Virus record (IMG/VR): IMGVR_UViG_2609459938_000002
Location: 1-64,000 of that record
From: an uncultured virus (IMG/VR IMGVR_UViG_2609459938_000002)
Taxonomy: Duplodnaviria; Heunggongvirae; Uroviricota; Caudoviricetes
Length of the DNA stretch: 64,000 nucleotides
Direction: 5' to 3' (one strand)
In this document: piece by piece, positions 13,346-56,341 of the stretch
Position numbering within the stretch: position 1 is the first letter of the stretch
Layout: each line of letters begins with the position of its first letter
Notes under the pieces: model-generated
The model's input: the letters and a program-made list of their open reading frames with translations, nothing else
Told to the model about the DNA's origin: nothing
The model's database searches: none
Made by a program: the position numbers and the translations under genes

Positions 13346-13613
13346 TCCTACTGCAACCATCAATGCGCTGTTATGTGCTGGTGTCGTTGTTACGTTGATG
13401 TTCTATCGCCGCAGAGACTCACGTCATCGTAAGTGGGTGTCGCGGCTGGCATGGCTGATAACAGTGATATACAGCTCTGTGCCGTTGGCGTATCTGTGCG
13501 GCATCTATCCCTATTCATCATGGCCCACCATTGCGGCCAATATCATGATCCTTGTTGTGCTGCTGAGCGTAAGAGGCAATGTAGCGCGGCTGGTTGATGC
13601 ACTGAGGCACTAA
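13332..13613 (+). CDS. Second holin-family membrane protein
   Basis: Three TM segments, C-terminal RGNVARL. Confidence 0.75.
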   Translation: MVLNDPTATINALLCAGVVVTLMFYRRRDSRHRKWVSRLAWLITVIYSSVPLAYLCGIYPYSSWPTIAANIMILVVLLSVRGNVARLVDALRH

Positions 13614-14242
13614 TGAATCAAACACAATTCCAGAAGGCGGCTGGTATTAGCGCCGGGTTAGCTGCGCGCTGGTTTCCGCATATTACAGCCGCGATGAAAG
13701 AGTTTGGCATCACTGCTCCACTCGATCAGGCAATGTTCATTGCCCAGATGGGACATGAGTCCGGAGGCTTTACCCGACTGGTGGAAAATCTGAACTATTC
13801 AGCAGATAGCCTTGTGCCTACGTTCGGTAAACACCGTATCACCGCCCAGCAGGCCGCAGCACTCGGCAGAACGGCAACACAACCAGCTAATCAGCGAGCA
13901 ATCGCGAATCTGGTGTATGGGGGCGAGTGGGGCAAAAAGAATCTCGGTAATCAGGTTGCCGGTGATGGCTGGAAATATCGCGGTCGCGGCCTGAAACAGA
14001 TTACCGGGTTAGCCAACTATCGCGACTGCGGAATCGCATTAAAGGTCGACCTTATTACTCACCCTGAGCTGCTGGAGCAGGACTCATACGCAGCTCGATC
14101 GGCAGCGTGGTTCTTTGCCTCTAAAGGGTGCCTGAAATGGTCTGGTGACCTTGTTCGAGTCACACAGATTATCAACGGCGGACAGAACGGCATTGATGAC
14201 CGTAAAGCCCGCTATCTCCTGGCAAAAAGCATTTTGGTTTGA
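13613..14242 (+). CDS. Glycoside hydrolase family 19 endolysin
   Basis: AQMGHESGGF, YRGRGLKQITG, INGGQNG. Confidence 0.92.
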   Translation: MNQTQFQKAAGISAGLAARWFPHITAAMKEFGITAPLDQAMFIAQMGHESGGFTRLVENLNYSADSLVPTFGKHRITAQQAAALGRTATQPANQRAIANLVYGGEWGKKNLGNQVAGDGWKYRGRGLKQITGLANYRDCGIALKVDLITHPELLEQDSYAARSAAWFFASKGCLKWSGDLVRVTQIINGGQNGIDDRKARYLLAKSILV

Positions 14243-14249
14243 GGGAAAT

Positions 14250-14426
14250 ATGAACTATCTCATTAATCGGCTGAAAGAGCCTTCCACCTGGCGCGGCATC
14301 ATCCTGGTCATTGCTGGCGTATTTGGCTATCAGATGCCTCCAGGCATTCAGGAAACCGTCATCGCTGGCGGCGTAGCGCTGGCTGGCGTTGTTGGTGCGG
14401 TGATGCCGGACAGCGTTAAGAAGTAA
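14250..14426 (+). CDS. 58-aa two-TM membrane protein (EPSTWRG motif)
   Basis: GAGG RBS; directly after the endolysin. Confidence 0.7.
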   Translation: MNYLINRLKEPSTWRGIILVIAGVFGYQMPPGIQETVIAGGVALAGVVGAVMPDSVKK

Positions 14427-14447
14427 CCTGGCCAGAAACCTGCAGGC

Positions 14448-14630
14448 CTACAGTAACCCACTTTCCTTTAGTTTTTTAGCCAATAAGTAATTGGTGATTA
14501 CTCCAAGAGAAACCCCAACAATCCACGGCACAGCTGAATTAAGCATTAGCGAGTTGTTCACATTAATGCTGGCGGTGATGCAGGCATAGGTATTTGTAAA
14601 AGCAAACCATGTAAAAAGTATCTGTTTCAT
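14448..14630 (-). CDS. Small membrane protein, antisense moron
   Basis: GGAG RBS; two hydrophobic segments; low GC. Confidence 0.5.
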   Translation of the reverse strand: MKQILFTWFAFTNTYACITASINVNNSLMLNSAVPWIVGVSLGVITNYLLAKKLKESGLL

Positions 14631-14996
14631 TTGGTTATCTCCATGCTTTCCCTCCCAACAATATCCACCTACGAGCTAGTAAAAGCAAACCAGTTACAAC
14701 CGAAAAGGCTACGAAACATGTGAAGTAAAACCTCTGGACGGCGGCACTGTAAAGGCTACCGAACTCTATCGCGCGGAGTCAGTGTAATCGGGATAAAGGC
14801 GATATCAGAAAAACTGAACAACTACGAGCGGGAGATAAATGGACCCATCCCTGAGGTCCATGGATGTAAACGCAAGGTAAGTCATTTATGGCTCTCTTAG
14901 CCTGGCACTTATCCACGGAAACAACAAGCGTAAGCGGTAGGTATTTATGATTTTTTTTCTGCTGCTTTATCCACAGCAAACCGAAGGAACTACGAA

Positions 14997-15290
14997 ATGA
15001 GTGAAGCAAAACCGCAGGACGGAAGCACTGTAAAAGGCTACCGCACATTAACCGCTGGCGACATTGAGCGCATGAACCGCCTCAAAGGTGTCAGCCGGCA
15101 CTTCTGTAGTTTGCTTGATACCGAGCGAGGTGAATTGTTGGCTGTGCGTAATGGCCCGGCAATGTTAAGTGCTGAGCAGGCTCGGGAGATTGATGAAGCT
15201 ATGCGCTGTCTGGCAATCGCCCGCACCAAAATGCAGGAAGCTTGTATGTGGGCATGCCGCGCAGTTGCCCGGCCAGATGCTGACTGTTAA
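14997..15290 (+). CDS. acb2: Acb2-like cyclic-nucleotide sponge (anti-CBASS)
   Basis: KGYRTL..MNRLK at the N-terminus and RCLAIARTKMQEACMWACRAVARP at the C-terminus match the Acb2 family pattern. Confidence 0.8.
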   Translation: MSEAKPQDGSTVKGYRTLTAGDIERMNRLKGVSRHFCSLLDTERGELLAVRNGPAMLSAEQAREIDEAMRCLAIARTKMQEACMWACRAVARPDADC

Positions 15291-15350
15291 CCCCGCCAAG
15301 GGATAAATCACCAACTATCCCCTCCCGAGGATAAAGCAATGAAGCAATAA

Positions 15351-15557
15351 GCGGACAGACCGCAGCCGAAAGGCAATGGAGCAGTCGTGATGCTTCCCTG
15401 AGTCGCCATTGAGCGAGCCTGTGTAGTGACGGGTCAAGGTTCTTATATCAAAAGCAGCTCCGGTAAAGCAGCGCGAATGCCAAACGTGCACCGGTTATGA
15501 GCGGCGATGATGCGACAGCAACTCAAGGGCATGAGCGTGGCCACTCCGGGAAGTGGC
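15351..15557 (+). ncRNA. Candidate multi-stem structured RNA
   Basis: No ORF; eight or more nested helices identified by eye (see findings). Confidence 0.5.
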
Positions 15558-15630
15558 AATGCATTACAGCAGGCATTCACTGAGTGCCTGTGATAATGTC
15601 GATGCGTTACTTAATCGAGAGGGCAAGTAA

Positions 15631-15837
15631 ATGCAATGGACATCAGTAAAATTTCAATTACCACAGCCGACAAAACAGGTTTCTTGGTATATCGTAAATA
15701 CGGTTAAAGGTGTTGGCTTTGCGGAATTCAATCCCCTAACCGGATTTAGCAATGTCGTGATTATTGATAACAGCCAGTTTTTTAATCTTGAAATAACTCA
15801 CTGGATGCCTTTACCTCCGCCACCGTCAAGCAATTAA
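15631..15837 (+). CDS. DUF551-like protein
   Basis: WTSV..LP and ITHWMPLPPPP motifs. Confidence 0.7.
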   Translation: MQWTSVKFQLPQPTKQVSWYIVNTVKGVGFAEFNPLTGFSNVVIIDNSQFFNLEITHWMPLPPPPSSN

Positions 15838-15909
15838 AATACCTTGCTTTCTACCGAGTCATTACTGAGCCACTAGCTTTCGCTGGTGGCTTTTTTTATT
15901 GGAGTGAAT

Positions 15910-16200
15910 ATGGCAACTAATTCACCCTGGCATCACCTCTATAACACCAAACGTTGGTACCGGCTGCGTTATCACCAGCTTCAGAAGCAGCCACTCTGCG
16001 AGTTTCACCTCAGGCGAAATCAGGTGATATCCGCAACCGTTGTTGATCACATCAAACCTCACAAGGGCGATGAAACCCTCTTCCACGACCCGGACAATCT
16101 TCAGTCGCTATGCAAGCGCTGCCACGACTCGGTTAAGCAACGCATGGAGAAGGGCGGAACGGTTACCGAGTTCGACAATGAAGGCAGGGTAATCTGGTAA
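15910..16200 (+). CDS. HNH endonuclease (terminase-associated, gp74-like)
   Basis: VVDHIKPH..NLQSLCKRCH; position before terS. Confidence 0.88.
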   Translation: MATNSPWHHLYNTKRWYRLRYHQLQKQPLCEFHLRRNQVISATVVDHIKPHKGDETLFHDPDNLQSLCKRCHDSVKQRMEKGGTVTEFDNEGRVIW

Positions 16201-16212
16201 CAGGAGCGCGCA

Positions 16213-16422
16213 ATGCAAGACCTGAAGATTGAATACCGGGATGGCAAGCTGGTGGAACTGAGCATTGATGGTGTGAGCTTTCTTTCTGCATCCTCCATCT
16301 CCTTCAGTCATACAGCAAACGAGACGCTACCAACGATCATCCTGACAATGTCTGTCGGTGTCGGTGAGCGCCTGGAGCCACCCAGTCCTCCTCGTGAAAA
16401 CCTGCGGATCATCGAGAAATGA
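16213..16422 (+). CDS. Hypothetical protein
   Basis: GGAG RBS; ORF. Confidence 0.6.
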   Translation: MQDLKIEYRDGKLVELSIDGVSFLSASSISFSHTANETLPTIILTMSVGVGERLEPPSPPRENLRIIEK

Positions 16423-16444
16423 TAGCTTTTCTCATTATCAGCCC

Positions 16445-16520
16445 GACAGGGTGGGGGGAGGGGTAAAACTCTGGCGGCAATCGTAAAAAGACCGCGCCCC
16501 CAGTTTTCTTTTCAAAAACG
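16445..16520. other. Probable cos region of prophage 1
   Basis: G-run/C-run element (GGGGGGAGGGG...ACCGCGCCCCC) between HNH and terS, the usual cos position in HK97-like phages. Confidence 0.45.
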
Positions 16521-16543
16521 TCCAGAAAAAAAGGAAAAAAGCG

Positions 16544-16978
16544 ATGGCACAGCGAGGCAGAAAATCTCTTGCCGCGACGACGGCTGTGTCGCTTCCGGCT
16601 CTGGCTGAAAGCAGGCTGCAGCCCTCGTTACACCTTAGCGATCCAGAGATAAACGTCTGGATCAGACTGGTTAACGATAACCCGGCCAGCTCATTTACTG
16701 AAACACATCGCGACATGATGGAAATGTACTGTCGGCATGTGGTGCAGGCGAGACTGTTAACCACTCAGATCGAGGAGTTTGAGCTGGAGTGGCTGGCTCG
16801 GGATGATGGGCTGAAGCGCTACGATAAATTGCTCACGATGCGCGAACGTGAAGTACGGTCTGCGTCTTCACTGGCAACGCGACTGCGTATCACCCGGCAG
16901 GCGACTGCTGATCCTAAAACAGTAGGACGCGCCAACAAAAATCTGCCGCGGGAGAAAAAACCCTGGGAAATTGAATAA
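16544..16978 (+). CDS. terS: Terminase small subunit
   Basis: Position upstream of terL; RGRK N-terminus; LATRLRIT. Confidence 0.75.
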   Translation: MAQRGRKSLAATTAVSLPALAESRLQPSLHLSDPEINVWIRLVNDNPASSFTETHRDMMEMYCRHVVQARLLTTQIEEFELEWLARDDGLKRYDKLLTMREREVRSASSLATRLRITRQATADPKTVGRANKNLPREKKPWEIE

Positions 16979-23756: not shown

Positions 23757-24248
23757 ATGTCTGTATTAACGCAAGGCACGCAGTTTTTTGTGCTCAAGTC
23801 TGGCGTGGTCAGCGAGGTTGAATGCATCACCAGTTTCAACCCCGGCGGGAACCCTGCCGATCAGATTGAAGATACCTGTCTGAGTGAGCGGGACTCCAGA
23901 ACCTACAAAAAGGGGCTTAAAACGCCTGCGGCCGCAACCGTCGGGCTTAACGCTGATCCGGCGAACGCCAGCCACATTATGTTGCATGGCCTCGCTGAAG
24001 CGAATGACCAGACGCCGTTAACTTTTGCGGTTGGCTGGTCAGATGGAACCAGTATCCCGACAGCCGCCGCTTCTGGCGCTGAGGATGCTGTTGATGGTCT
24101 GGTGCTGCCATCGGATCGCACCTGGTTCATTTTCCAGGGTTACGTTTCTGACTTCCCGTTTGATTTTCAGGGTAACGCTGTTGTGACGACCTCCGCCACG
24201 ATCCAGCGGTCTGGCTCTTCCGTATGGGTGCCGAAGGCCGCAGCGTAA
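23757..24248 (+). CDS. Major tail tube protein
   Basis: QIEDTCL, FQGYV; strong RBS; flanked by terminators. Confidence 0.85.
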
Positions 24249-24291
24249 TTAATATGCCCGGTTATCCGGGCTTTTCTATTCAGGAGCTGAA

Positions 24292-24645
24292 ATGCAACTT
24301 ACTCTCGATACGTTAAAAGAAACCGGTGCTTTTACCGGGCGTCCCGTGGAAAAAGAAATTAAGTGGAAAGGCCGTGACGGGAAAGAGCATATCGCAACCG
24401 TCTATGTGCGCCCGATGGGCTACCACACCACTAAAGCTGAACTGCTGGCGTATAACGGGAAATCGGACCCGATTGCTGAGCGCATTGCGGCGCATATTTG
24501 CGATCAGGACGGCGCCCCAGTGTTTACCGCGGCTGACATTCTTGGGACTGCATCCCCGGATCGTGGGGCGCTGGACGGTCCGATTGTTATGGCCCTCCTG
24601 GCTGCAATTCATGATGTAAACGAACTGGGAAAGACTACGAGCTAA
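24292..24645 (+). CDS. Tail assembly chaperone G
   Basis: Position between tube and tape measure; ends at slippery G GGA AAG. Confidence 0.85.
   Translation: MQLTLDTLKETGAFTGRPVEKEIKWKGRDGKEHIATVYVRPMGYHTTKAELLAYNGKSDPIAERIAAHICDQDGAPVFTAADILGTASPDRGALDGPIVMALLAAIHDVNELGKTTS
24627..24633 (+). other. Programmed -1 frameshift site GGGAAAG
   Basis: Same heptamer as lambda G-T; the -1 frame is open to 24941. Confidence 0.85.
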
Positions 24646-24941
24646 CCGGCGAGGATGAATTCTGGTGCGAACTGGTGATGAACGGCATCGGCGGCCGCAC
24701 CATCGCAGAGGCTCAGGAGCGGATGAGTCGCAGGGAATTTCTGGTTTGGCTCAAGTACCGTGAGAAGTACGGACCGCTCAATATCATGATGCGTACCGAG
24801 TGGGGGGCGTCGCTGGTGGCGTCTGTCCTGGCTAACATCAATAAGGCAAAAAACACGCCGCCGTTCAAGGTAAGTGACTTTGCACCGCACATCAACGAAG
24901 CGCCATTATCTCTGGAAGAAGCTATGAAAAGTTGGCATTGA
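24633..24941 (+). CDS. Tail chaperone T portion (GT fusion)
   Basis: -1 frame DYELTGEDEFWCELVMNGIGG... Confidence 0.8.
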   Translation, partial: DYELTGEDEFWCELVMNGIGGRTIAEAQERMSRREFLVWLKYREKYGPLNIMMRTEWGASLVASVLANINKAKNTPPFKVSDFAPHINEAPLSLEEAMKSWH

Positions 24942-25004
24942 TGACTTTTAAATCGCTGCAGTGATCACTATCATCAGTACAACAATAACCACTGGGATAG
25001 GGAT

Positions 25005-25397
25005 ATGAAGAAAATAGCGATTATGTTATTTGCATTATTGTTAACTGCGTGCGCAGCAAATCCACCTAGCCAAGTTCAGTTGCATTCGGCTGATTATGGG
25101 GTGCTACCGGATAACTATCAGCAGCAGATAAAGGATTGGTGGGGAAGGATGTTAAAAGACCCATATTCTGCTCATTATACTTTTGGTACACCAGAGAAAG
25201 CATGGTTTAAGGATGGCATTTTAGCTGAATCAGGAGGGGCTATGCGATATGGATGGCTTATTCCAATAACCATTAATGCTAAAAACTCTTATGGTGGATA
25301 TACAGGTGCTGAAGCACATACTATTTTTTACTCTCATGGGAAAATAGATTCCGCTGATGCTCAGGTGAATGCGGGCTATACGGGAAAAGTTAAATAA
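25005..25397 (+). CDS. Lipoprotein moron
   Basis: Lipobox LLTAC; LKDPYSA and NAKNSYGGYTG motifs; low GC; terminator at 25422-25447. Confidence 0.8.
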   Translation: MKKIAIMLFALLLTACAANPPSQVQLHSADYGVLPDNYQQQIKDWWGRMLKDPYSAHYTFGTPEKAWFKDGILAESGGAMRYGWLIPITINAKNSYGGYTGAEAHTIFYSHGKIDSADAQVNAGYTGKVK

Positions 25398-25466
25398 TTT
25401 TAACCAATATATAAACAAACCAAAACCTCGCTTCGGCGGGGTTTTTTGTTGCCTGGAGAAAATTAA

Positions 25467-27902
25467 ATGGCTGGCAAGTCCCTCGGTACGTTAACAATCG
25501 ACCTGATCGCTAAAGTAGGTGGATTTGTTCAGGGCATGGATAAAGCCGAAAGGGCATCCCAAAAATGGCGTGACCAGGTAAAAAAAGACGCCAAGGAAAT
25601 AAGCACCTCCATTATTGCTATTGGAGCAGCTGCGGCAACTGCCGCTGTCGGGATTGGCGCTGCTGGGCTGGCGATTGTAAAAAATACAGCTCAGCAAGTG
25701 ACCGAGGCAGATCGCTGGGCTAAGTCATTAAAAATGTCCACCCAGGATTTGCTATCCTGGCAATACGCAGCTGAACAGGCAGGTTTAACCGGCGATAACA
25801 TAGCCGATATTTTCAAAGACATTAATGATAAAGTCGGCGATGCGGTCCTGAACAAATCAGGTGAGGCTGCGCAGGCTTTGGACACACTCGGGCTTTCAGC
25901 TCAGAAGCTGGCTCAGCAATCCCCTGATAAACAGTTGCTGGCTATTAGTTCGGCATTACAGAAAATACCCACTCAGGCTGGGAAAACCAATATACTTGAA
26001 AGCTTAGGGAATGACCTGTCAAAAATGCTGCCGTTGTTTGACAACAACAACGAAAAGCTAAAGCAGTTTATCCAGCTATCAAAAGATTTTGGTGTCGCAC
26101 CACCGCAAGAAGATATTGACAACCTTGTTAAGGTTAATCAGTTCTTTCAGGATATAGAGACTAGCGCCCGCGGTCTTAAAATGGAAATTGCTTCAGGGCT
26201 GGCTAAGGTTGACCTTACGCCATTGCAGGATGGGCTTGATGACATTCGTGACGTCTTCACCGATCCTGCTGTTCTTCAGGGGCTATCAGACCTGGTTGGA
26301 GAAGCCATAAGCCTTGCCGGGGTTGTGGGGCGTATTGCTGGTGGCTTGGGGGCCATTGCTACTTATACCCGCTCTCGTATCGGTGCTGTATCTGGTAATT
26401 ATAACGCTGCTGATGAAAGTGATATTGCACAGCGCATTGAATTCCTTAACAAACGAGGGAATCAAAGTAAGGAACAAAAAGACGAATTAGACTTTTTAAC
26501 TAAACGCCTTCAATTTCTTCGCGCGATAAAGTCAAGCATGACTCCGGAGCAGGTAGATAGAGGAGCGAAAGGGCTCACCTCTCTACTTTCTGATCTTGGC
26601 ATTGACACTTCTAAAGATAATGATTTTTCGTTGGGCAAAGGGGAGTCTAACCAGAACCACCCAAACACAAAACCAAAAAGCAATCCGACTGACAATGCTT
26701 TCAAAAATAGACTGCTTGATTTACAAAAGCAGGCCGCCCTAATTGAAACAACAGGTAAAAAAACCGCAGAAGTAACCGAGCTGGAGAAGATTAATTTTGA
26801 TATAACCAGCGGTAACCTGAAAAAATTATCAGAAGGGCAGAAGGAACAACTTCGAACTGCGGCTAAAACCCTTGATTCCAAGAAGGAAGAGTTACGGCTT
26901 AATCAGGAAAATGCGAAAGTAGCTGAATATGTTTCAGATCTCGAAAGACAGAATAAGTTAGTCCGCAAAGGGTTTGATAACCAAATAGTTGGCCGTTATT
27001 CTGGTAGTCGTGAACGTTCACGCATGCAGGATAATAATGATATTCAGCAAGATTTTGCTTCTCGACAGGAAGAGCTTTTAAATCAATTCCAGTCTGGAGA
27101 TATTGATAAAAGTCTATACGATAAAAAGAAAGAAGCGCTTCAAAACTCGCTGAATGAAAGGCTAAGAATTCAAGAGGAACATTATAAGAAGTTAGATGAG
27201 TTACAAAGCGATGGTGTTGCAGGTTTCGTTTCTGGAATATCAGATCAAGCTGCTGCATATTCAAACCTATATGCAAATATGCAGCAAGTAGGTGCACAAA
27301 CGTTTAGTAGTTTAACTGATATGGTAATTAACTGGGCGGAAACCGGTAAATTAAACGCTCAGGACTTTGCGGCGACATTCATTCAATCTGTTGGGGCTGC
27401 ATTACTGCAATATGCGGCTGCTCAGGTAGCAATGGCAGCGTTGAGTGCCTTCACTGCCTGGATTGGTGTTCCCTATGTAGGGCCTGTGGTGGCGTCAACC
27501 CAAGCAATAGCTGCGGCAGCTGCTGCTGGTGTGTTCATGACTGCTATCGGATCGGCGCTTCATGGCCAGGCTCACGACGGTATCGACTCTGTGCCCGAAA
27601 CGGGAACCTGGCTCCTGCAGAAAGGTGAGCGCGTTACGACAGCTAAAACCAGCGCAAAACTGGATGCCACTCTGGATCGAGTTGCAAACCAGTCAACAGG
27701 CGGCGGCGCGATTTATTCGCCCACAATCAATATCCCCATTAATGGCAACCCGTCCGATGCGACAGTAGCCCTCGTGCGCAAAGCCGCTGCTGAAGGTGCT
27801 GAGCGCGGCTACCGAAAAGCTGTCAACTCGGTGACTACCGGGCAAGGTGATCTGCATAGGGCACTTATGGTGAAAACCAACTCGGGGAGGAAAATTCGCT
27901 GA
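25467..27902 (+). CDS. Tape measure protein
   Basis: Long Ala-rich helical ORF; LGTLTIDL N-terminus; AHDG...LQKGERV C-terminus. Confidence 0.92.
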   Translation: MAGKSLGTLTIDLIAKVGGFVQGMDKAERASQKWRDQVKKDAKEISTSIIAIGAAAATAAVGIGAAGLAIVKNTAQQVTEADRWAKSLKMSTQDLLSWQYAAEQAGLTGDNIADIFKDINDKVGDAVLNKSGEAAQALDTLGLSAQKLAQQSPDKQLLAISSALQKIPTQAGKTNILESLGNDLSKMLPLFDNNNEKLKQFIQLSKDFGVAPPQEDIDNLVKVNQFFQDIETSARGLKMEIASGLAKVDLTPLQDGLDDIRDVFTDPAVLQGLSDLVGEAISLAGVVGRIAGGLGAIATYTRSRIGAVSGNYNAADESDIAQRIEFLNKRGNQSKEQKDELDFLTKRLQFLRAIKSSMTPEQVDRGAKGLTSLLSDLGIDTSKDNDFSLGKGESNQNHPNTKPKSNPTDNAFKNRLLDLQKQAALIETTGKKTAEVTELEKINFDITSGNLKKLSEGQKEQLRTAAKTLDSKKEELRLNQENAKVAEYVSDLERQNKLVRKGFDNQIVGRYSGSRERSRMQDNNDIQQDFASRQEELLNQFQSGDIDKSLYDKKKEALQNSLNERLRIQEEHYKKLDELQSDGVAGFVSGISDQAAAYSNLYANMQQVGAQTFSSLTDMVINWAETGKLNAQDFAATFIQSVGAALLQYAAAQVAMAALSAFTAWIGVPYVGPVVASTQAIAAAAAAGVFMTAIGSALHGQAHDGIDSVPETGTWLLQKGERVTTAKTSAKLDATLDRVANQSTGGGAIYSPTINIPINGNPSDATVALVRKAAAEGAERGYRKAVNSVTTGQGDLHRALMVKTNSGRKIR

Positions 27903-28381
27903 TGGCAATCACCACGACACTTTACTACCCCGCTGATGTTCTCCCTGGGCCGTTGAAAGACGGCTTTGGAATGAAGCCGAAATCCCCGGTAAAAATCACC
28001 GAGCTCGTAACGGGGCGTAAAAGAATACGGCGTGGCTATACCTCTGTTCCTACGGAAACAGATGTAGCCTGGATTTTTACTGACGCGCAGGCCCAGGCTT
28101 TTGAGGCATGGTACCGGGATGTTCTTAAAGACGGCAGCGCCTGGTTTAACATGCCGCTACTGACGCCAGTGGGGCAAAAAAATTACGTTTGCAGGTTTAA
28201 CGATATTTATGAGGGGCCTACGCCTGAAGGAGGCTTGTACTGGCGGTATTCAGCATCCCTTGAGTTATGGGAACGGCCGCTGCCGGCGGTTGGCTGGGGA
28301 GAATATCCGGAGTGGATTGTGGGGAGTTCGTTACTCGATATAGCTCTGAACAGGGAGTGGCCTAAGCATGACAGCGATTAA
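27902..28381 (+). CDS. Minor tail (distal tail) protein
   Basis: Position; AFEAWY..GSAWFNMPL. Confidence 0.75.
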   Translation: MAITTTLYYPADVLPGPLKDGFGMKPKSPVKITELVTGRKRIRRGYTSVPTETDVAWIFTDAQAQAFEAWYRDVLKDGSAWFNMPLLTPVGQKNYVCRFNDIYEGPTPEGGLYWRYSASLELWERPLPAVGWGEYPEWIVGSSLLDIALNREWPKHDSD

Positions 28382-28850
28382 CCGCCTTTATGCGTCCTCC
28401 GGGTCGGAGGTCATCATTGGTACGTTGCAGATCGATATTGGCGGCCAGACGCATTATCTGTGTGAGGGGTACGAGGACATTACGGCGGTTACCGAGAGGG
28501 GCGAAACCGTAACGTTTATTGCCTGTGCCATTGTCCTATCCCTTCCTGCCAGAAACGAAGACGGGACGCAGGACCTGAAGTTTATGCTGTGCAACATCGA
28601 CGGCGTTGTATCCACGGCTATTCGCAAGGTCATTGATGCCATGTCCACTGCCAGCATCACATTCAGGAAATACATTTCCACTGACCTTACCGCGCCAGCG
28701 GAGCCGCCTTACGTCATGCCGGTTAAAGGAGGCTCCTGGACGCCGCTGACTGTAAACGTCACTGCTGGTTTTAAAAATATGCTCGATTATGCCTGGCCAC
28801 GTGACAGGTACACGTTGACGTACTTCCAGGGTCTTCGTTACACACGATAG
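28368..28850 (+). CDS. DUF1833-like minor tail protein
   Basis: RLYASSG, WPRDRY..FQGL. Confidence 0.75.
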   Translation: MTAINRLYASSGSEVIIGTLQIDIGGQTHYLCEGYEDITAVTERGETVTFIACAIVLSLPARNEDGTQDLKFMLCNIDGVVSTAIRKVIDAMSTASITFRKYISTDLTAPAEPPYVMPVKGGSWTPLTVNVTAGFKNMLDYAWPRDRYTLTYFQGLRYTR

Positions 28851-28857
28851 GTATCCC

Positions 28858-29238
28858 ATGATCAACATTGATAAATACCTGACCGTCCGCTGGCAGATGG
28901 GCGGCCGCACTTTTCCTGTTCTCGACTGCTACGGCATTGTACATGAGGTCCGCCGGGACCTCGGATTGCCTGAATGGCCTGCGTTTGAAGGTGTGATAAA
29001 GGATGGCGATGAAATGCATATTGCCTGCAATAACTTCCGTCAAAACGTAGTGCGGTGCGAACCCTGCCCGGGTGCGGTTGCCGCCTGCTATATGGGTGGG
29101 GTAATCGGTCATCTCGGCATCGTGGTTGAGCTGAGCGGCCTGCTTTATGTGATGGAATGCAATCCCCGGCGCAACGTGACCATTCTTCCCCTGGCGCGTT
29201 TTGAACGTCAGTTTCTGAAAGTGGAGTATTACCAGTGA
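28858..29238 (+). CDS. NlpC/P60-like tail assembly protein
   Basis: GGR..LDCYG and HLGIV motifs. Confidence 0.75.
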   Translation: MINIDKYLTVRWQMGGRTFPVLDCYGIVHEVRRDLGLPEWPAFEGVIKDGDEMHIACNNFRQNVVRCEPCPGAVAACYMGGVIGHLGIVVELSGLLYVMECNPRRNVTILPLARFERQFLKVEYYQ

Positions 29239-32200
29239 CAATCCGCCTTTACCCGTCGCGTTTGCCTGGCGAACCGCTGGAGACGCATGAACACAGGGAT
29301 ACGACCATACATGACTGGATGCTCCAGCATGTCGATAACTACCGTAACGATATGGTGCAGCGTGTTACGTTTGAGGTGAATGGTAAACCGGTCCCACCGG
29401 CAGAATGGCCTTTATGCTTTATCAGTGCTGAGAGCGATGTAAAAGTTTACCCGATCCCTGGTGAGGGGGTGACGGCAACTACTATCGCTGCCTGGGCAGC
29501 GGCGGCCATCGCTGCAGCCTCGGCTGTGTATGTACTGATCACCATGTCGAACATGGATAAAGGCGGCTATTCATCCTCCAGTGGTCTGGGGCTGGATTTA
29601 AACCCAGCCAAAGCGAACCAGGCGAAACTTGGCGACCCAATCCGCGAAGTGTTTGGCCGTTGCCGTATCTATCCAGATTATGTCGTACAGCCAGTGACGC
29701 GCTTTAATCCTGATGATCCAACGCGAATGACCGTCGAAATGATGGTTTGCCTTGGAAAGGGGAATTTCGCGTTTACGAATGGTGATATCCGTGTGGGTTC
29801 AACACCTATTTCAGCATTAGGGGACTCGTTCAGTTACAACGTTTATTCACCTGGAGCAGATGTTTCAGGAGATCGGCGAAGTGAAAACTGGTTCAACTCG
29901 ACAGAGGTAGGTGGTACTTCCAGCGGGAGTGGGCTTGATATGGCGCAGACCTCTCCAGATTCGACAGATATCAACGCCGATAGTATGACCGTTTCTGGCG
30001 CATCCGTGACGTTTAACGGGCTGGATGATGGCAACGATGATGACGATGAAGGCAATGCGTTGCCTGAGTCGTGGGTTGAGGGGGCCATTGTTACGATCGT
30101 CGCACCGATGAATTTTCTGGTTTCAACCTCGTCGGGATATAGCGTTCTCGCCAGTAACTCTCTGGGTGAAATTAATCCCTATCCGGGGATGCCGGTTACC
30201 CTGGAAATCAACGGCACTGAATATGAACTGGTTATTGCAACTTATACGGCAAAGCAGGACGCGATACCCGGGGTGGGTGGAAATGCGGCCGGCCTGAAAG
30301 CAAATGCCTCCCCATCAACATATGATTACTCCGGTACCGGCCAGACTTTTACGATCACCTGGCAGGGACATGAGTACACTATTTCCCTCGTTGCAGACTA
30401 TGTGAATATGCCCGGCCTGCTGGCGGTGATAAACGATGGCCTGACCGGGTCAGGATTACTGGCGCAGGATAGCGGCGGTGTTGTGCTGATTGCTGAGGCA
30501 TCAAGCCCCTGGCTCGGCGGAAACATTACCTCATCATCGCTCCCGGTAGCCGTTTTTGGCGACAGTCCTGTATTTACCTCCGGCACCGCGTCCAGCGGAG
30601 GCAGTCCGGCAATAACTGCTAACGTTACGCTGGCGTATGGGAGTGCAACCGGAGTGGCATTTTCCGGGATACCGGAGGGAACACAACGCCTGGCGCTGGC
30701 TCACCGTGGCAACGAGTACCGCATTGCGGATGCGGACGGTACGACCGCAACGGTTCAGCGGCTGATTGATGGAGTGGTTGATCCTTCCTGGTCTGGCTTC
30801 TCACCCCGCACGATGATTGACTATCAGGCTACAGGGATCAGCGACAACAATACCTGGATGGGGCCGTTCCTTGCCTGCCCGGAATCTGAAGTGGTGGACG
30901 CTTTCGAGGTGAATTTCTCCTTTCCGTCTGGCATTTGCGGATTCGACAGCAAAGGCAAAAAACGCATCAGGCATTGTGAGTGGGAAATACAGTACCGTGT
31001 TTATGGATCTGGCTCTGGCTGGACGAGCAGGCAGGGGGTTTACGCGCTTAAAAATATCAACGGGTTGGGTTTTACAGAGCGTTTTGATCTCTCTTCTCCT
31101 GGGCTGGTTGAGGTGCGCTGCCGCCGCCGCAATGAGCAGGGTAGCAATAACGCGCGTGACTCGATGTACTGGCAAGCGTTACGTGGTCGTTTGTTAGCTC
31201 GGCCAACATCCTATGCTGGCGTCACCCTGATGGGGGTTACGGTTGAGACGGGGGGCAAATTGGCGGCTCAGTCTGACCGGCGCGTAAACGTTGTGGCCAC
31301 GCGCATTTATGACTCCGGCGTTGCCCGTAGTATCTCTGGTGCGCTTTATCACGTCGGCCGTTCTCTTGGTATGGAAATGGATACTGAGGCAATAGATGCC
31401 CTGGAGCAGACTTACTGGACCCCGAACGGCGAGTATTTCGATTTTGCCACGGGTGACAGTATTTCTGCGCTGGAAATGTTTCAGAAAATCGCTGCAGCCG
31501 GAAAGAGTTATTTTCTGCTAAATACCCAGTCTGTAGCTTCAGTGGGTCGTGAAGGTGTTAAACCCTGGACCGGGGCTATCACCCCTCACGAGATGGTATC
31601 CGAGATGCAGACCGATTTCGTCACGGTGACTGACGACGATTACGATGGTGTTGACGTAACCTATATCAACGGATCGACCTGGGCAGAAGAGACGGTGCAA
31701 TGCCGTCTGCCTGGCAACCCAACGCCGCTGAAAATAGAGGCATACCGGGCTGATGGGGTAGGCAATCCTGATCACGCATATCAGATTGGTATGCGCCGAC
31801 TCAGAAAATACCAGCTACAGCGCATGACGCATAAAACAACGACGGAACTGGATGCGCTCTGTTACAACGTCGGGGATCGTATTGTGTTGACCGATGATAT
31901 CCCTGGCAGCAACACCATTTCGTGTTTGATTGAGTCGATGGCTACTGCTGGTGGGGTGACCACATTCGATGTGTCGGAGCCGCTGGACTGGACTTTTGCA
32001 AATCCACGTGTCTATTTGCGTTACCAGGATGGAAAAGCATCACGGCTGTTTGAAGCATCACCTACAGGTGACAACTATCAGGTATCCGTCCCGTATCAAT
32101 CTGAGTTCGCCGATATCCTGCTGGATGACCCGATAATTGAGCCTCCCCGGTTAATTTTCTGTAGTTCTGAGAGCGACCTGTATCACGCCATTGTTTCCGA

Positions 32201-32303
32201 GATAGTGCCGCAGGACGATGGAACCTGCGAGATAACTGCCCGGCAATACCGCGCTGAATTTTATGACTACGATGACGCCACATACCCCGGCGACGTCGCG
32301 TAA
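29235..32303 (+). CDS. Tail tip / host-specificity protein
   Basis: 1022 aa; PIREVFG..YPD; position. Confidence 0.82.
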   Translation: MTIRLYPSRLPGEPLETHEHRDTTIHDWMLQHVDNYRNDMVQRVTFEVNGKPVPPAEWPLCFISAESDVKVYPIPGEGVTATTIAAWAAAAIAAASAVYVLITMSNMDKGGYSSSSGLGLDLNPAKANQAKLGDPIREVFGRCRIYPDYVVQPVTRFNPDDPTRMTVEMMVCLGKGNFAFTNGDIRVGSTPISALGDSFSYNVYSPGADVSGDRRSENWFNSTEVGGTSSGSGLDMAQTSPDSTDINADSMTVSGASVTFNGLDDGNDDDDEGNALPESWVEGAIVTIVAPMNFLVSTSSGYSVLASNSLGEINPYPGMPVTLEINGTEYELVIATYTAKQDAIPGVGGNAAGLKANASPSTYDYSGTGQTFTITWQGHEYTISLVADYVNMPGLLAVINDGLTGSGLLAQDSGGVVLIAEASSPWLGGNITSSSLPVAVFGDSPVFTSGTASSGGSPAITANVTLAYGSATGVAFSGIPEGTQRLALAHRGNEYRIADADGTTATVQRLIDGVVDPSWSGFSPRTMIDYQATGISDNNTWMGPFLACPESEVVDAFEVNFSFPSGICGFDSKGKKRIRHCEWEIQYRVYGSGSGWTSRQGVYALKNINGLGFTERFDLSSPGLVEVRCRRRNEQGSNNARDSMYWQALRGRLLARPTSYAGVTLMGVTVETGGKLAAQSDRRVNVVATRIYDSGVARSISGALYHVGRSLGMEMDTEAIDALEQTYWTPNGEYFDFATGDSISALEMFQKIAAAGKSYFLLNTQSVASVGREGVKPWTGAITPHEMVSEMQTDFVTVTDDDYDGVDVTYINGSTWAEETVQCRLPGNPTPLKIEAYRADGVGNPDHAYQIGMRRLRKYQLQRMTHKTTTELDALCYNVGDRIVLTDDIPGSNTISCLIESMATAGGVTTFDVSEPLDWTFANPRVYLRYQDGKASRLFEASPTGDNYQVSVPYQSEFADILLDDPIIEPPRLIFCSSESDLYHAIVSEIVPQDDGTCEITARQYRAEFYDYDDATYPGDVA

Positions 32304-32379
32304 TACCCCATAACAACCCCTAATTAACTCTTTTCGCTCAAACCCTCGTTTGGGCGAAGCCTCTTTTTGGAGCAAAAAC

Positions 32380-34983
32380 ATGGCCTTTAACCCGGAGCTG
32401 GGGAGCACGTCTCCCGCTGTGTTGCTCGATAACGCCGAGCGCTTGGATAAGCTGGTTAATGGTCCCGCCGCAGATGTTCCCGACCGTGGTGGTGACCCTC
32501 TTTATTCATGGCGCCAGATGATGGCGAAAAACGATGAAATTCGTCAAAACCTCGTACCTCTCAGCAGGCAGTATATGACGCTTGCTGATGCACAGGCGGA
32601 TATCGCGAATATTCCAGAAGGCAGCAGCACCTATGTTCGCAGTCAGGACGGAAGCTCTCTGGCCGATGAGTACATCAACAATGGTGGCACCCTGACTGCT
32701 ACCGGACGGAAGATGCCATCCTGGGCCGCAGTTGAACTCATGTCAGATACCGTCCAGCGTTTAATGACGGCGCTGCACGTTATGGCGGAGGGCGGCACAA
32801 GCTCTGGTTCAGGTAGTGAAAGCAGCGATACAGTGCAGAATCTGATGACCGGATTTAACGTGCTGGCTGAGTCAATTAATAATCTGTCAGTGGGAAACCA
32901 GCAAAATGCCAGCGGATTATCCAGGCTGGTCTCATCAGTCCAGATTTGCACTGAAATGCTGAACACGCTGGCGGCTGAGATCGTAACTCCTGACGGCGCA
33001 TCACAGTATGGTTATGTGGCATTTTCCGTGCCCGGTACAGTCAACGCTGGTAACGGGTCGTTTGGCACCGATACACGCTACCGCAGGACCGGGATGATCC
33101 CGGTTCGCAAGGGTGACGTTGTGCGCCTCACTGTTTACACCACATCGGCAACCGCAGGCCACGCAGCTGCGCTGTACGATTCATCAGGGGCGTACGTTGG
33201 CCCGCTGGGGATTATGTGCGCGTCGTATGCGGCGTATCAGGCACGACATTACCAGTGTGAAATTGCTCAGGACGGGTTTGTCGTTGCGAACACGCTGGAC
33301 CAGGGCGCGTCCCCCTCTGCTGATGTCACCGGTGCGGTACTGACGATTGACCACCGTCTGCGTGGCCGGGCTGCAGATGCTGTTCTTAAACTGTCAAAAT
33401 CCGATTTAATCCCTGTCCGTCTCGATAACGGAAATATCAATGCGAGTTCTATCACGCAGGACGGTATCGTTAACTACTCCACCGGGCTGTATTCCTGCAC
33501 TGGCGGAAGACTCCTGTTCAGTGGCCTGCCTGTAGCCTCGGCTCCAGGGCAGAGCAGTAGCCTGTATAACGTGGTTTTCTACGATGCAAATAAGGCGCTT
33601 ATTGCGTATCGCCCGGTTTTCTCCAGTTCGGGTTATGTGGTCATCCCTGAAAATGCCGCGTACTGGGCGCAGCAGATAATCACCGACAGAACGCCGGACT
33701 GGTCTGCTGTCTCAATCGTTTATTACAATTATGTCTATAAAGACGAGTTGCATAAACTTCTGTCTTCGGAGCGCGAGCGTCTTGGGCTTGATTATCCGAA
33801 CGAATACTGGCTGCAGGATTTCAGCGGCGCTACGGACATTGAGTGGATCCAGAACGCGATGGACTGGGTGCATGACGCGGGCGGCGGATTGCTGATAATT
33901 TCATCTGACTATGTGAAAAAGCAGTTCATCATCTCCGAAGCCGTCATCCACCGCAGTAACGTATGGGTTGTACTGGATGGCGTTGAAATTAAATTGCAGG
34001 ACGGCGTGCATGACAACCTGTTTCGTGCGGCAGGGGTTATTGTCAACCCAGCCGATCCGTTTGGTCTGTGTCTGGACCTGGAAATAACGGACAACGTCCG
34101 CTTAATTGGCACAGGCTATCCGAAACTCAGTGGCGCTGACGTGGCGTATTACGCCGATATTCCGGCAGGTGCCGGGCCTCGCTACTGGATTGGTGATGAA
34201 TACGGATGGCGAGGTACAGGGCTGATTTATTACGGTACGCAGAATTTTGAAATTGGCGGCTTTAAACTCCAGAACGTAAAAAACTGGGGAACCGATTTCG
34301 GTTATGGTGCCAAGAATGGGTACATCCATGATATTGACCTGTGGCAGCCGAACAAAAACGGCGACGGCATCCACTTCACCAACGGTGCCAGCCACATGCG
34401 CGTCCGTCAGATTTTCGGCTATGCGCGCGACGACTGCTTAGCGATGGTCAATAGTGATGACTCTCTGGTTTACGGTCCTGACAAAATCCCGACACCAGGC
34501 TCAATTCGCCAGTGGATTTATCCAACCTGTCCTTTCTGGTACGGGTGGGCGGGGAATGAGGCTGTGGGAACCAGCAACGATATTCACGATATCACTGCTA
34601 CGAATATCGGGTTAACCGGTAACGAGCAGGTCAGCACCATTCTGACCACGCAGTTTAAAATCTACAACGTGACAATCAGCGGTATCAGCAGCGTCAACTA
34701 TATGACTCCGGGCCGTGGCTGGGATGAAGTTAATGCGATTCTGAAATCGTATGCAGGGTTTGGGGATGCTTCCCGCTATAAGGCAGGTAATGTCAGCAAT
34801 ATCAGCATTAATAACATCATTGAGTGTGCGTCGAAAAATTACAGTATCGATATAACGCTGGAGGGGAGGAATATCCGCGTCAATCGTTATATGAAACTGG
34901 ATACCCGTGCGAAAACAAAAGGTGCGCTGAACATCAGCAGCTCAGCGGCCCCGTACGTCACAACCTCTAATATTGTGGAATAA
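32380..34983 (+). CDS. Tailspike with beta-helix (pectin-lyase/GH28-like) domain, putative polysaccharide depolymerase
   Basis: Phage anchor N-terminus (LLDNAERLD); NGDGIH and RDDCLA resemble GH28 NTDG/GDD motifs. Confidence 0.75.
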   Translation: MAFNPELGSTSPAVLLDNAERLDKLVNGPAADVPDRGGDPLYSWRQMMAKNDEIRQNLVPLSRQYMTLADAQADIANIPEGSSTYVRSQDGSSLADEYINNGGTLTATGRKMPSWAAVELMSDTVQRLMTALHVMAEGGTSSGSGSESSDTVQNLMTGFNVLAESINNLSVGNQQNASGLSRLVSSVQICTEMLNTLAAEIVTPDGASQYGYVAFSVPGTVNAGNGSFGTDTRYRRTGMIPVRKGDVVRLTVYTTSATAGHAAALYDSSGAYVGPLGIMCASYAAYQARHYQCEIAQDGFVVANTLDQGASPSADVTGAVLTIDHRLRGRAADAVLKLSKSDLIPVRLDNGNINASSITQDGIVNYSTGLYSCTGGRLLFSGLPVASAPGQSSSLYNVVFYDANKALIAYRPVFSSSGYVVIPENAAYWAQQIITDRTPDWSAVSIVYYNYVYKDELHKLLSSERERLGLDYPNEYWLQDFSGATDIEWIQNAMDWVHDAGGGLLIISSDYVKKQFIISEAVIHRSNVWVVLDGVEIKLQDGVHDNLFRAAGVIVNPADPFGLCLDLEITDNVRLIGTGYPKLSGADVAYYADIPAGAGPRYWIGDEYGWRGTGLIYYGTQNFEIGGFKLQNVKNWGTDFGYGAKNGYIHDIDLWQPNKNGDGIHFTNGASHMRVRQIFGYARDDCLAMVNSDDSLVYGPDKIPTPGSIRQWIYPTCPFWYGWAGNEAVGTSNDIHDITATNIGLTGNEQVSTILTTQFKIYNVTISGISSVNYMTPGRGWDEVNAILKSYAGFGDASRYKAGNVSNISINNIIECASKNYSIDITLEGRNIRVNRYMKLDTRAKTKGALNISSSAAPYVTTSNIVE

Positions 34984-55372: not shown

Positions 55373-55553
55373 TTTACTTACCTCGTATTTACCTGATATC
55401 AGTGAGTGCTACATTGAGTCAGGGCTTCGCAATAGCTTTAAGTATTAGAATGTATACAATTTAAGTGGGCGTTGTTGGCTTATATTATGGCAGAGGCGCT
55501 GGCGGTATGGTCAGATATTGACACTTTGAATGTTTGCATCATAAATTATCGAG

Positions 55554-55662
55554 GTGGTGAATCCCCCTATGCGGAGGGGCGACCAGTCAGTTACAGAAAC
55601 CTGTAAATGCAGCGCGGGCCATGCCGACTGGGGCATGCTCACCGGGAGGCACCCGGCACCAC
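55554..55662 (+). ncRNA. Structured RNA motif, copy 2
   Basis: GTGGTG...CCGGGAGGCACCCGG-CACCAC; TTGACA (55518) and TAAATT (55542) just upstream. Confidence 0.65.
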
Positions 55663-56046
55663 ACTAATGCCTTAACATAGTGACTGTAATGACAAAAGCC
55701 TTGCTCTTTTTGTCTGTCAGGCTATGGTTAACGAACGTAACGGTAAAAAAAGAAGGCTTTCCTGGTAAATCGGTAGCTCGGACTATTAGGTGCACCTTCC
55801 TTTCGTTACAGCCTTGGTTGCCAATTTTCTTCCCGCTTCTCTGGCGGTTTTTTTTATTCATAATCTGCCCAAAAAAACATCAAAGCAAGGAAGGCGATGG
55901 ATTCATTTGCAGGAACTCCTTTCCCCTTCAACGGAGACAGGCTCAAAGCAATAAGAAGCGGAACAGAAGGATGCTTTGCGCCGAAAAATTAGGTCATAGC
56001 GACGCATGGCATTGAAGAGACGTTATTGAGATGTTAAGTTTTATGG

Positions 56047-56149
56047 GTGGTGAATCCCCCTAGCGGAGGGGCGTAAACAGTTAGAAGCGAATCCTCAGCG
56101 CGAGTCACGGTGACTGACCAACGACTTACCGGGAAGCACCCGGCACCAC
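56047..56149 (+). ncRNA. Structured RNA motif, copy 3
   Basis: Same ends as copy 2 with a different middle; TTGAAG-17-TAAGTT upstream. Confidence 0.65.
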
Positions 56150-56341
56150 AACTTCACCTCAAGCCCACGTTAACGCGTGGGCTGTTCTTTTCCAGCGGAT
56201 CTATTCAAAGGCTGCGCATTTGCGTGGCCTTTTTCATTTCAGGCTCACGGGAATCATCATCGATACGGCTCGTTGTTAAATCAGCCCGATGGGCCTGACC
56301 CCCTACACGCACAAAGCACCCCGTTAATCCGGAGGTGGAGT

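Follow-up and report, generated by a model that had tools for sequence, protein, structure and literature searches.

The question raised by this locus is what occupies the gene-free stretch between an Acb2-like gene and a DUF551 gene in a lambdoid late operon, and what role it plays there. The window, meaning the whole stretch of 64,000 nucleotides that was analysed, comprises positions 1 to 64,000 of the IMG/VR record IMGVR_UViG_2609459938_000002, an 86-kb provirus that carries one copy of the element according to a search with covariance model R1. The element is a portable leader RNA of Enterobacterales mobile elements, here flanked by lysis genes on its 5' side and by an HNH gene, terS and terL on its 3' side, with approximately 20 kb of co-directional structural genes 3' of it, reaching about 36 kb. 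The main features of the locus are:

13613-14242, GH19 endolysin gene, one of the lysis genes upstream of the cassette
14997-15290, + strand, Acb2/Tad1-type gene outside the cassette (Pfam PF24729, E 1.4e-17, exceeding the cut-off; phrog_717)
15327-15558, + strand, whole cassette: Shine-Dalgarno site, mini-ORF and structured RNA core
15631-15837, DUF551 gene, downstream neighbour of the gene-free stretch
15867-15892, + strand, intrinsic terminator, an 11-pair stem followed by a T run

The original prediction, made from the letters of the DNA, had placed a large structured phage non-coding RNA at 15351-15557, GC-rich, free of genes, adjoining an Acb2-like gene and unlike a tRNA or a terminator. 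Most of this description stands: 15291-15630 holds no + strand ORF of 30 aa or more, the upstream gene matches the Acb2 family, ARAGORN found neither tRNA nor tmRNA genes in the window, and a scan of 14400-16600 found no terminator-like site falling on the element, the listed terminator lying 310 nt 3' of the cassette, inside the late operon and ahead of the HNH and terminase genes. The same scan found no promoter-like site, consensus scans of this kind being weak evidence. The GC content is raised modestly (0.53-0.55, against 0.38-0.55 in the flanks), and the predicted coordinates cover the core and miss the 5' part, the unit starting with the Shine-Dalgarno site at 15327 and the mini-ORF at 15339-15350. 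The pentamer GAGCG does occur three times, at 15411, 15499 and 15533; the repeat is no feature of the family, the third copy alone being invariant.

At the 3' side, contigs of the RNA runs X1 and X2 begin exactly at 15561 with different sequence upstream, which marks this position as the right-hand mosaic joint of the cassette; they cover 15561-16300 only and not the element. Directly 3' of the joint, an 11-pair interrupted hairpin (15561-15598, -21.2 kcal/mol) forms a second conserved module, perhaps a sequence that marks a module boundary or the leader of the DUF551 gene. Its identity is 95-100% in numerous Klebsiella phages and in phi80, mEp390 and ZF40, where the cassette is often missing, and phage vB_EcoS-733R5 has two copies. 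On the other side, between the Acb2 stop codon and the Shine-Dalgarno site, lies a GGGATA...TATCCC hairpin (15300-15321) common to the post-lysis subfamily of relatives, its place being taken by a true terminator in the post-Q subfamily. Two further observations concern the window at large. A 68-nt segment at 14698-14764 is a partial duplicate, at 79% identity, of 14978-15045, where the Acb2-like gene has its ribosome-binding region and 5' end; it precedes the real gene by about 280 nt. The prophage small RNA STnc100 (Rfam RF02076) is present in two tandem + strand copies, at 55523-55717 (78.3 bits) and 56018-56189 (68.9 bits).

Relatives of the element are widespread. A blastn search against phages found the core (approximately 15338-15551) at 76-93% identity in 14 records, corresponding to about 8 phages of Escherichia, Klebsiella, Hafnia and Providencia, where it is almost always unannotated and occupies varied genome positions. 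The element is present in 122 of 5426 complete E. coli genomes (about 2%), again annotated almost never, in at least 120 IMG/VR contigs scanned with the invariant joining strand CTCAAGGGCATGAGCGTG as the pattern, and in 19 plasmid records. Among sampled species genomes it occurs in 34 of 401 Enterobacteriaceae, the family of a Kluyvera genome, where BLAST matches spanning the 3' half alone proved to be full-length members of a divergent subfamily, and in 2 of 150 from the rest of the order; in a class-level sample it was not found among the 150 other genomes searched. A 16-mer scan of genome contigs returned mostly chance matches (approximately 280 expected by arithmetic), with the element in 6 of 120 loci, and was set aside. 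From 128 sources an nhmmer profile gave 120 matches, 110 of them near full length and 97 distinct, which form the set of relatives used here. Model R1, with 234 model positions, 45 base pairs and 7 branch points, aligns end to end with 15327-15558 (245.7 bits, E 6.7e-75), its sole match in the window.

The fold was modelled by column covariation in the MAFFT alignment A2 of the 97 distinct sequences, together with inspection. The core after the mini-ORF is 207 nt long and pseudoknotted, with about 10 helices:

15351-15354 with 15360-15363, + strand, P1 hairpin with a conserved loop; 89-90% of cells paired, low variation and few compensatory cases
15365-15374, + strand, P2 hairpin, peripheral and variable, with a GAAA loop here; 3 of 3 pairs change on both sides
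15378-15383 with 15391-15396, + strand, P3 with loop GUNRUGA; 6 of 6 pairs change on both sides, 96.5-97.1% of cells paired
15397-15399 with 15437-15439, + strand, junction helix enclosing P5 and P6
15403-15406 with 15413-15416, + strand, P5 local hairpin; 97.6-97.7% of cells paired
15418-15422 with 15429-15433, + strand, P6 hairpin; pair 15420:15431 is UG in 51, AU in 39 and GC in 5 relatives
15425-15427 with 15457-15459, + strand, pseudoknot formed by the P6 loop; 87-89% of cells paired
15460-15464 with 15490-15494 (outer) and 15471-15475 with 15485-15489 (inner), + strand, P7 two-part hairpin, its loop with a near-invariant GCCA
15502-15514, + strand, P8 small bulged hairpin, the weakest helix; 80.7% of cells paired, 2 of 4 pairs change on both sides
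15522-15539, + strand, invariant joining strand CTCAAGGGCATGAGCGTG; 13 invariant positions among the 97 relatives
15540-15557, + strand, P9 3' hairpin; 98.4-99.1% of cells paired

Pairing is preserved in the homologues. In A2, standard pairs make up 94.9% of 4192 cells, a share that drops to 32-37% once the partners are slid, and both sides change in 31 of 44 pairs. Covariation scores 0.355, where the slid controls give 0.025-0.057, and 0 of 500 shuffles attain the observed values. An alignment reduced to 52 representatives less than 90% identical (A3) gave closely similar figures (93.4% of cells paired, 32 of 48 pairs changing on both sides, score 0.358). In the inner part of P7, 5 of 5 pairs change on both sides and 98.5-99% of cells are paired (95.4% in the outer part), and P9 appears as CCAC/GTGG, TCAC/GTGA and CTAC/GTAG among other variants. 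In P5, pair 15405:15414 is GC in 55, UA in 25, CG in 7 and AU in 3 relatives, and in the junction helix pair 15399:15437 is CG in 68, UA in 28 and UG in 1. One pseudoknot pair is AU in 55, CG in 26 and GC, UA and UG in 3 each, and another is GC in 66 and AU in 27; part of this signal may be due to subfamily structure. Variation is concentrated in the peripheral helices P2, P6 and P8, while loops and joining strands are near-invariant: P2 varies in length and is missing from some members, P6 has an insertion of 18-20 nt in one subfamily (A2 and A3), and P8 is swapped for larger hairpins in subfamilies. In three IMG/VR contigs (L046 1663-1838, L080 1181-1356 and L020 1681-1854) a 176-nt insertion stands in place of P2, with P1 and the rest kept; this insert shows no resemblance to the immunity region of HK022 and may be an added RNA domain.

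Of the nine helices in the original prediction, six are backed by the relatives, namely GCGG/CCGC (P1), GCC-GAAA-GGC (P2), GGAGCA/TGCTTC (P3), CCGGT/ACCGG and GCGCG/CGTGC (both P7) and GCCACT/AGTGGC (P9). The three long-range ones, CCTGAGT/ACTCAAGG, TCGCC/GGCGA and GAGCCT/AGGTTC, find no support: their covariation is 0.053, where shuffles average 0.048 and a slide of +3 gives 0.103. TCGC pairs locally with GCGA in P5 and not with the distant GGCGA, 15397-15399 pairs with 15437-15439, and 15526, the partner proposed earlier for 15399, is unpaired in 68 of the 97. Other candidate pairings were discarded as well. RNAalifold on the MAFFT alignment gave 32 pairs only, some of them doubtful, and its long-range CGC/GYG helix and CTCA/TGAG hairpin, composed of invariant bases, were not adopted; pairing of the P1 3' strand with GCGG at 15501-15504 was dropped because there are subfamilies without that GCGG.

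The original prediction was to be refuted by a folding energy no better than that of shuffled controls, and single-sequence folding gave just that, with z scores of -0.15 on the + strand and +0.38 on the - strand. This null result is outweighed by the conservation and covariation among the 97 relatives, because of which the element is regarded as real rather than the product of chance. The + strand is the RNA strand, since G-U pairs are frequent (for example UG in 25, 17 and 30 of 52 at three pairs of A3) and would be A-C mismatches on the opposite strand. The Rfam search proposed with the original prediction, run against Rfam 15, found nothing on the element at gathering thresholds, and at E<=10 the single match was NiCo, at 13.9 bits against a gathering score of 64.5. 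Literature searches outside supplementary files found no published description of the element, and the preprints on the Pas sRNA and on Minerva are, in their available parts, unrelated to it. The cassette is almost certainly a real structured RNA family, widespread and well defined, which supports the original prediction of a large structured phage RNA, and it is uncatalogued, being absent from Rfam.

The 5' part of the unit consists of translation signals, with a strong ribosome-binding site:

15327-15330, + strand, Shine-Dalgarno site GAGG, 8 nt ahead of the start codon
15339-15350, + strand, mini-ORF ATG AAG CAA TAA, three sense codons, ending directly at P1

A Shine-Dalgarno-like motif is found in 93 of the 97 distinct relatives, with a modal spacing of 8 nt. 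As aligned, the start codon is ATG in 89, GTG in 3, TTG in 2 and ATA, ATT and TAT in 1 each. The four GTG and TAT rows can be read as ATG starts in an offset position. The mini-ORF has 1-3 sense codons in 88 of 97, its stop lies 0-1 nt before P1 in 58 of 97, and where the first stop is missing an in-frame UAG occurs in the P1 loop. Two divergent members (94 and 85 bits) retain the Shine-Dalgarno site, the ATG and an early stop, and the plasmid copies retain the mini-ORF too. Its position is conserved while its codons vary, with 45 different sequences among the 97 relatives, indicating that the encoded peptide itself is not conserved. Going by the size of the ribosome footprint, a ribosome halted on the mini-ORF would cover P1. 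Start-stop and two-codon minigenes, of which lambda bar is an example, likewise have a Shine-Dalgarno site followed by an ORF of 1-3 codons; the cassette differs from them in that codon identity is unconserved and the ORF is fused to a large structured RNA.

The cassette is co-oriented with its flanking genes at every locus examined. The nearest same-strand ORF upstream, counted over 78 loci that were not de-duplicated, encodes a Q-like antiterminator in 18, a CI-type repressor in 10, an Rz spanin in 9, an Acb2-like protein (phrog_717) in 7, and RexB, BstA and a Nun-like protein in 1 each, with no informative family in 31. Downstream ORFs, tested at 55 of the 78 loci, are N-like in 6, holins in 6, TerB-like in 3, HNH in 2 and terS in 1. 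In both directions the neighbouring ORFs are heterogeneous. There are at least four recurrent slots: after Q and tR', in the pL leader before N, at the lysis-packaging junction as here, and at the heads of plasmid T4SS or pilus operons. The original placement in a lysis-to-packaging moron zone fits the present copy and describes one of these positions. Common to all the slots is a location just ahead of a long co-directional gene array of a mobile element.

A tR'-like intrinsic terminator abuts the Shine-Dalgarno site in 32 of 97 distinct flanks, the cassette then lying downstream of it, a terminator lies within 110 nt downstream in 23 of 97, and 13 of 97 have terminators on both sides. In about 14 flanks the terminator starts within approximately 25 nt after P9, and this proximity, together with a size, complexity, pseudoknot and conserved junctions typical of aptamers, could suggest a riboswitch-like sensor of a ligand or of translational status, controlling a downstream terminator or ribosome-binding site. 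Such a sensor is highly improbable given that the downstream genes range over N, holin, TerB-like, HNH, terS and pilus or T4SS genes and show no consistent class, that 74 of 97 flanks have no nearby terminator, and that a conserved linker stands between P9 and any terminator that follows, so that no expression platform overlaps the aptamer.

Identical left ends of the cassette adjoin different terminators, which, along with the four or more genomic slots, the sharp boundaries and the mosaic joint at 15561, is what might be expected of an RNA that is selfish or catalytic, such as a self-cleaving ribozyme not yet described, and that spreads between module boundaries. The odds are strongly against this explanation, as neither a target duplication nor a mobility gene travels with the cassette, no ribozyme family in Rfam 15 matches it, and mosaic exchange among lambdoid phages accounts for the spread.

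The neighbouring Acb2 gene had led to the suggestion of a possible anti-defence function. This is unsupported, because only 7 of 78 loci share an Acb2-like neighbour, and 6 of the 11 plasmid copies examined head conjugation operons. It would be one form, as a decoy, of a stable trans-acting RNA of lytic growth or transfer, with a conserved host machine, for instance the ribosome or a nuclease, as its binding partner. The near-invariant loops do suggest a conserved host partner, the Shine-Dalgarno site could tether the RNA to 30S subunits, the cassette adjoins an Acb2 gene here, and the 23 flanks with a close downstream terminator, 13 being terminator-flanked on both sides, resemble discrete RNA genes. 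A stand-alone small RNA gene or moron would have its own promoter and terminator, but 14400-16600 contains no promoter-like site and the downstream terminator is confined to those 23 of 97 flanks. Strict co-orientation and operon-head position are not required of a trans-acting RNA, the expression timing differs between the early pL and the late contexts, and conjugation operons would be an odd home for a decoy against anti-phage defence, leaving a trans-acting role rather unlikely.

Contexts were examined for 11 of the 19 plasmid records. In four MOBP/MPF_I-type plasmids (one from Rahnella, two from Pantoea and one from Pectobacterium) the cassette lies directly upstream of the type IVb pilus operon, in a Yersinia frederiksenii plasmid and in Erwinia pET49 it lies directly upstream of a VirB-type T4SS operon, and the remaining 5 of the 11 are phage-like contexts. 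The Yersinia plasmid has a promoter-like -10 element ending about 10 nt before the cassette and, approximately 1 kb 3' of it, a strong 10-pair terminator with a long T run (L260 5233-5255), located inside the T4SS operon between a small ORF and a VirB1-like gene. The scan there counted 10 terminator-like sites, against 2.7 +/- 1.5 in shuffles. In Pectobacterium atrosepticum pLPa1526 (L263 1936-2445) a gene for a NusG paralogue, with a strong terminator behind it, precedes the pilus-operon cassette by about 1 kb, and the paralogue and the cassette could work together. A leader dependent on RfaH and ops was rejected, as an ops-like 8-mer occurs within 400 nt at 1 of 126 loci only.

Expression was followed in RNA reads from a related strain, 90-99% identical (stranded raw-read run X23, of which about 13 in 100 was read and 28 reads aligned). 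In most stranded libraries a first mate on the - strand signifies + strand RNA, and the first mate is on the - strand in 28 of 28 reads. The reads span 14994 to approximately 15510 without a break, at a depth of 2-11, and show no pile-up of read ends, 28 reads being too few to judge ends or levels. This shows low-level co-transcription of the cassette with the upstream gene in a relative, and no more. Run X7 covers 14990-15140 and 15175-15424 at a depth of 2.

Long foreign operons classically need processive antitermination. RNA-based antiterminators that head phage and conjugation operons are put, EAR and conAn2, in the account given in the available part of PMC8191782. As the slots precede long co-directional arrays and RNA-based antitermination is known for long operons, we propose, with a probability of roughly 40%, that the cassette is a cis-acting RNA, put-like in role, that would keep transcription processive. 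The nascent cassette RNA would fold and act in cis on the RNA polymerase that made it, and elongation would become resistant to Rho and to intrinsic terminators. The mini-ORF would load a pioneer ribosome, which would shield the 5' flank from Rho and RNase E and gate the folding of P1.

Several observations agree with a put-like role. The plasmid cassettes directly precede pilus (4) and T4SS (2) operons, the Q/CI/Rz-type neighbours upstream and N/holin neighbours downstream place the cassette in operon leaders, and the Yersinia plasmid has its promoter-like -10 element on the 5' side and its strong terminator about 1 kb into the operon. In the present provirus, the 11-pair terminator and some 20 kb of co-directional genes lie 3' of the cassette. 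Against this, most phage hosts of the cassette encode N or Q, making antitermination redundant there, the cassette lies after and not before the tR' terminator in 32 of 97 flanks, and here it is in mid-operon and does not adjoin a promoter. We know of no antiterminator RNA with a translated mini-ORF, which also counts against it. The 28 RNA reads from the relative show transcription continuous with the upstream gene and are silent on function.

The position data are fitted equally well by a 5' mRNA stabiliser. In that case a ribosome parked on the start-stop ORF and the compact fold would together block 5'-end-dependent RNase E on the downstream mRNA; as a processing module, the cassette would instead define a processing site between operon modules. 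Ribosome-based 5' stabilisers include ermC and Stab-SD, and the Shine-Dalgarno site and mini-ORF at the extreme 5' side of the cassette resemble them; operon heads and module junctions are fitting positions, and the cassette would form the beginning of the transcript on the Yersinia plasmid. A stabiliser would have no need of near-invariant loops, a pseudoknot and an invariant strand of 13 positions, and the reads show no pile-up of starts or ends, few as they are for such a judgement. Stabilisation or processing is thus a possible function, though not a likely one.

The put-like proposal concerns role and not descent. The cassette is classed with leader RNAs of long mobile-element operons, and like putL and putR of HK022 it is cis-encoded, co-oriented with the operon it leads and sited at the pL and pR slots, where long phage operons have their leaders. 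Independence from any phage protein is proposed for both. The region 24000-33000 of HK022 presumably includes both put sites, which are unannotated in that record, and nothing was found there by nhmmer (E<=10) or by R1 (E<=1). Homology with put was therefore rejected, there being no sequence or model similarity and an unrelated fold, and the lack of similarity also weighs against the put-like reading. The cassette is approximately 230 nt long with 10 helices and a pseudoknot, about three times the size of put, which is small and has two stems (PMC8191782, available part). It further differs in its Shine-Dalgarno site and mini-ORF and in its presence in phages with N and Q and in plasmids.

The conAn2 RNA of pLS20 and other Gram-positive conjugative plasmids is similar in standing at the start of a conjugation operon with internal terminators, in its length of a few hundred nucleotides and in acting in cis, as is proposed for the cassette (PMC8191782, available part). 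According to the same partial source conAn2 is poorly conserved, whereas the cassette, whose hosts are Gram-negative, is highly conserved and opens with a mini-ORF. The conAn system is bipartite, the RNA being paired with a gene for the ConAn1 protein; the ORFs beside the cassette are heterogeneous, and no ConAn1-like gene was noticed among them. EAR, the eps-associated RNA of Bacillus, is likewise a structured RNA in the leader of a long operon, where processive antitermination is attributed to it (PMC8191782, available part), but belongs to a different phylum and context. A cmscan of the cassette at E<=10 gave no EAR match, which counts only if EAR is in Rfam 15. The short RNA of lambda pR'-tR' (6S), StxS of Stx phages and the lambda N leader occupy the same slots, after Q and tR' or at nutL-N. 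These are short leaders or RNase III stems, whereas the cassette is an added portable module present in a subset of phages only. ROOL and GOLLD are 2.5-4 times larger than the cassette. They too are conserved complex RNAs, prophage-linked and with no assigned function in the available part of bioRxiv 10.1101/2024.12.08.627333, but they have Rfam families, lack a mini-ORF and are not tied to operon heads.

A bolder form of the antitermination proposal, which we consider doubtful, is that RNA and ribosome together make a new class of processive antiterminator needing no phage or plasmid protein. A pioneer ribosome would dock on the nascent RNA at the start-stop ORF, the core with its pseudoknot would then link this ribosome, or the RNA itself, to the elongating polymerase, and the complex would be proof against Rho and terminators. 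Such a device would be portable between the early and late operons of phages and the conjugation operons of plasmids throughout Enterobacterales. Participation of the ribosome in the mechanism could make the cassette a categorically new kind of element.

Should the cassette be a self-contained processivity RNA, it would be without precedent in Gram-negative conjugative plasmids. It would then also be the first RNA antiterminator to open with a translated start-stop ORF, and would add no more than a fourth type to the RNA-based antiterminators put, EAR and conAn2, by the count in the available part of PMC8191782. Builders of synthetic operons could use it as a small, portable part, either an insulator or an antiterminator. 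Even with the mechanism wrong, it represents a well-defined, widespread structured RNA family missing from Rfam. With the mechanism right, it would explain how long acquired operons, including those for T4SS, pili and phage morphogenesis, escape Rho.
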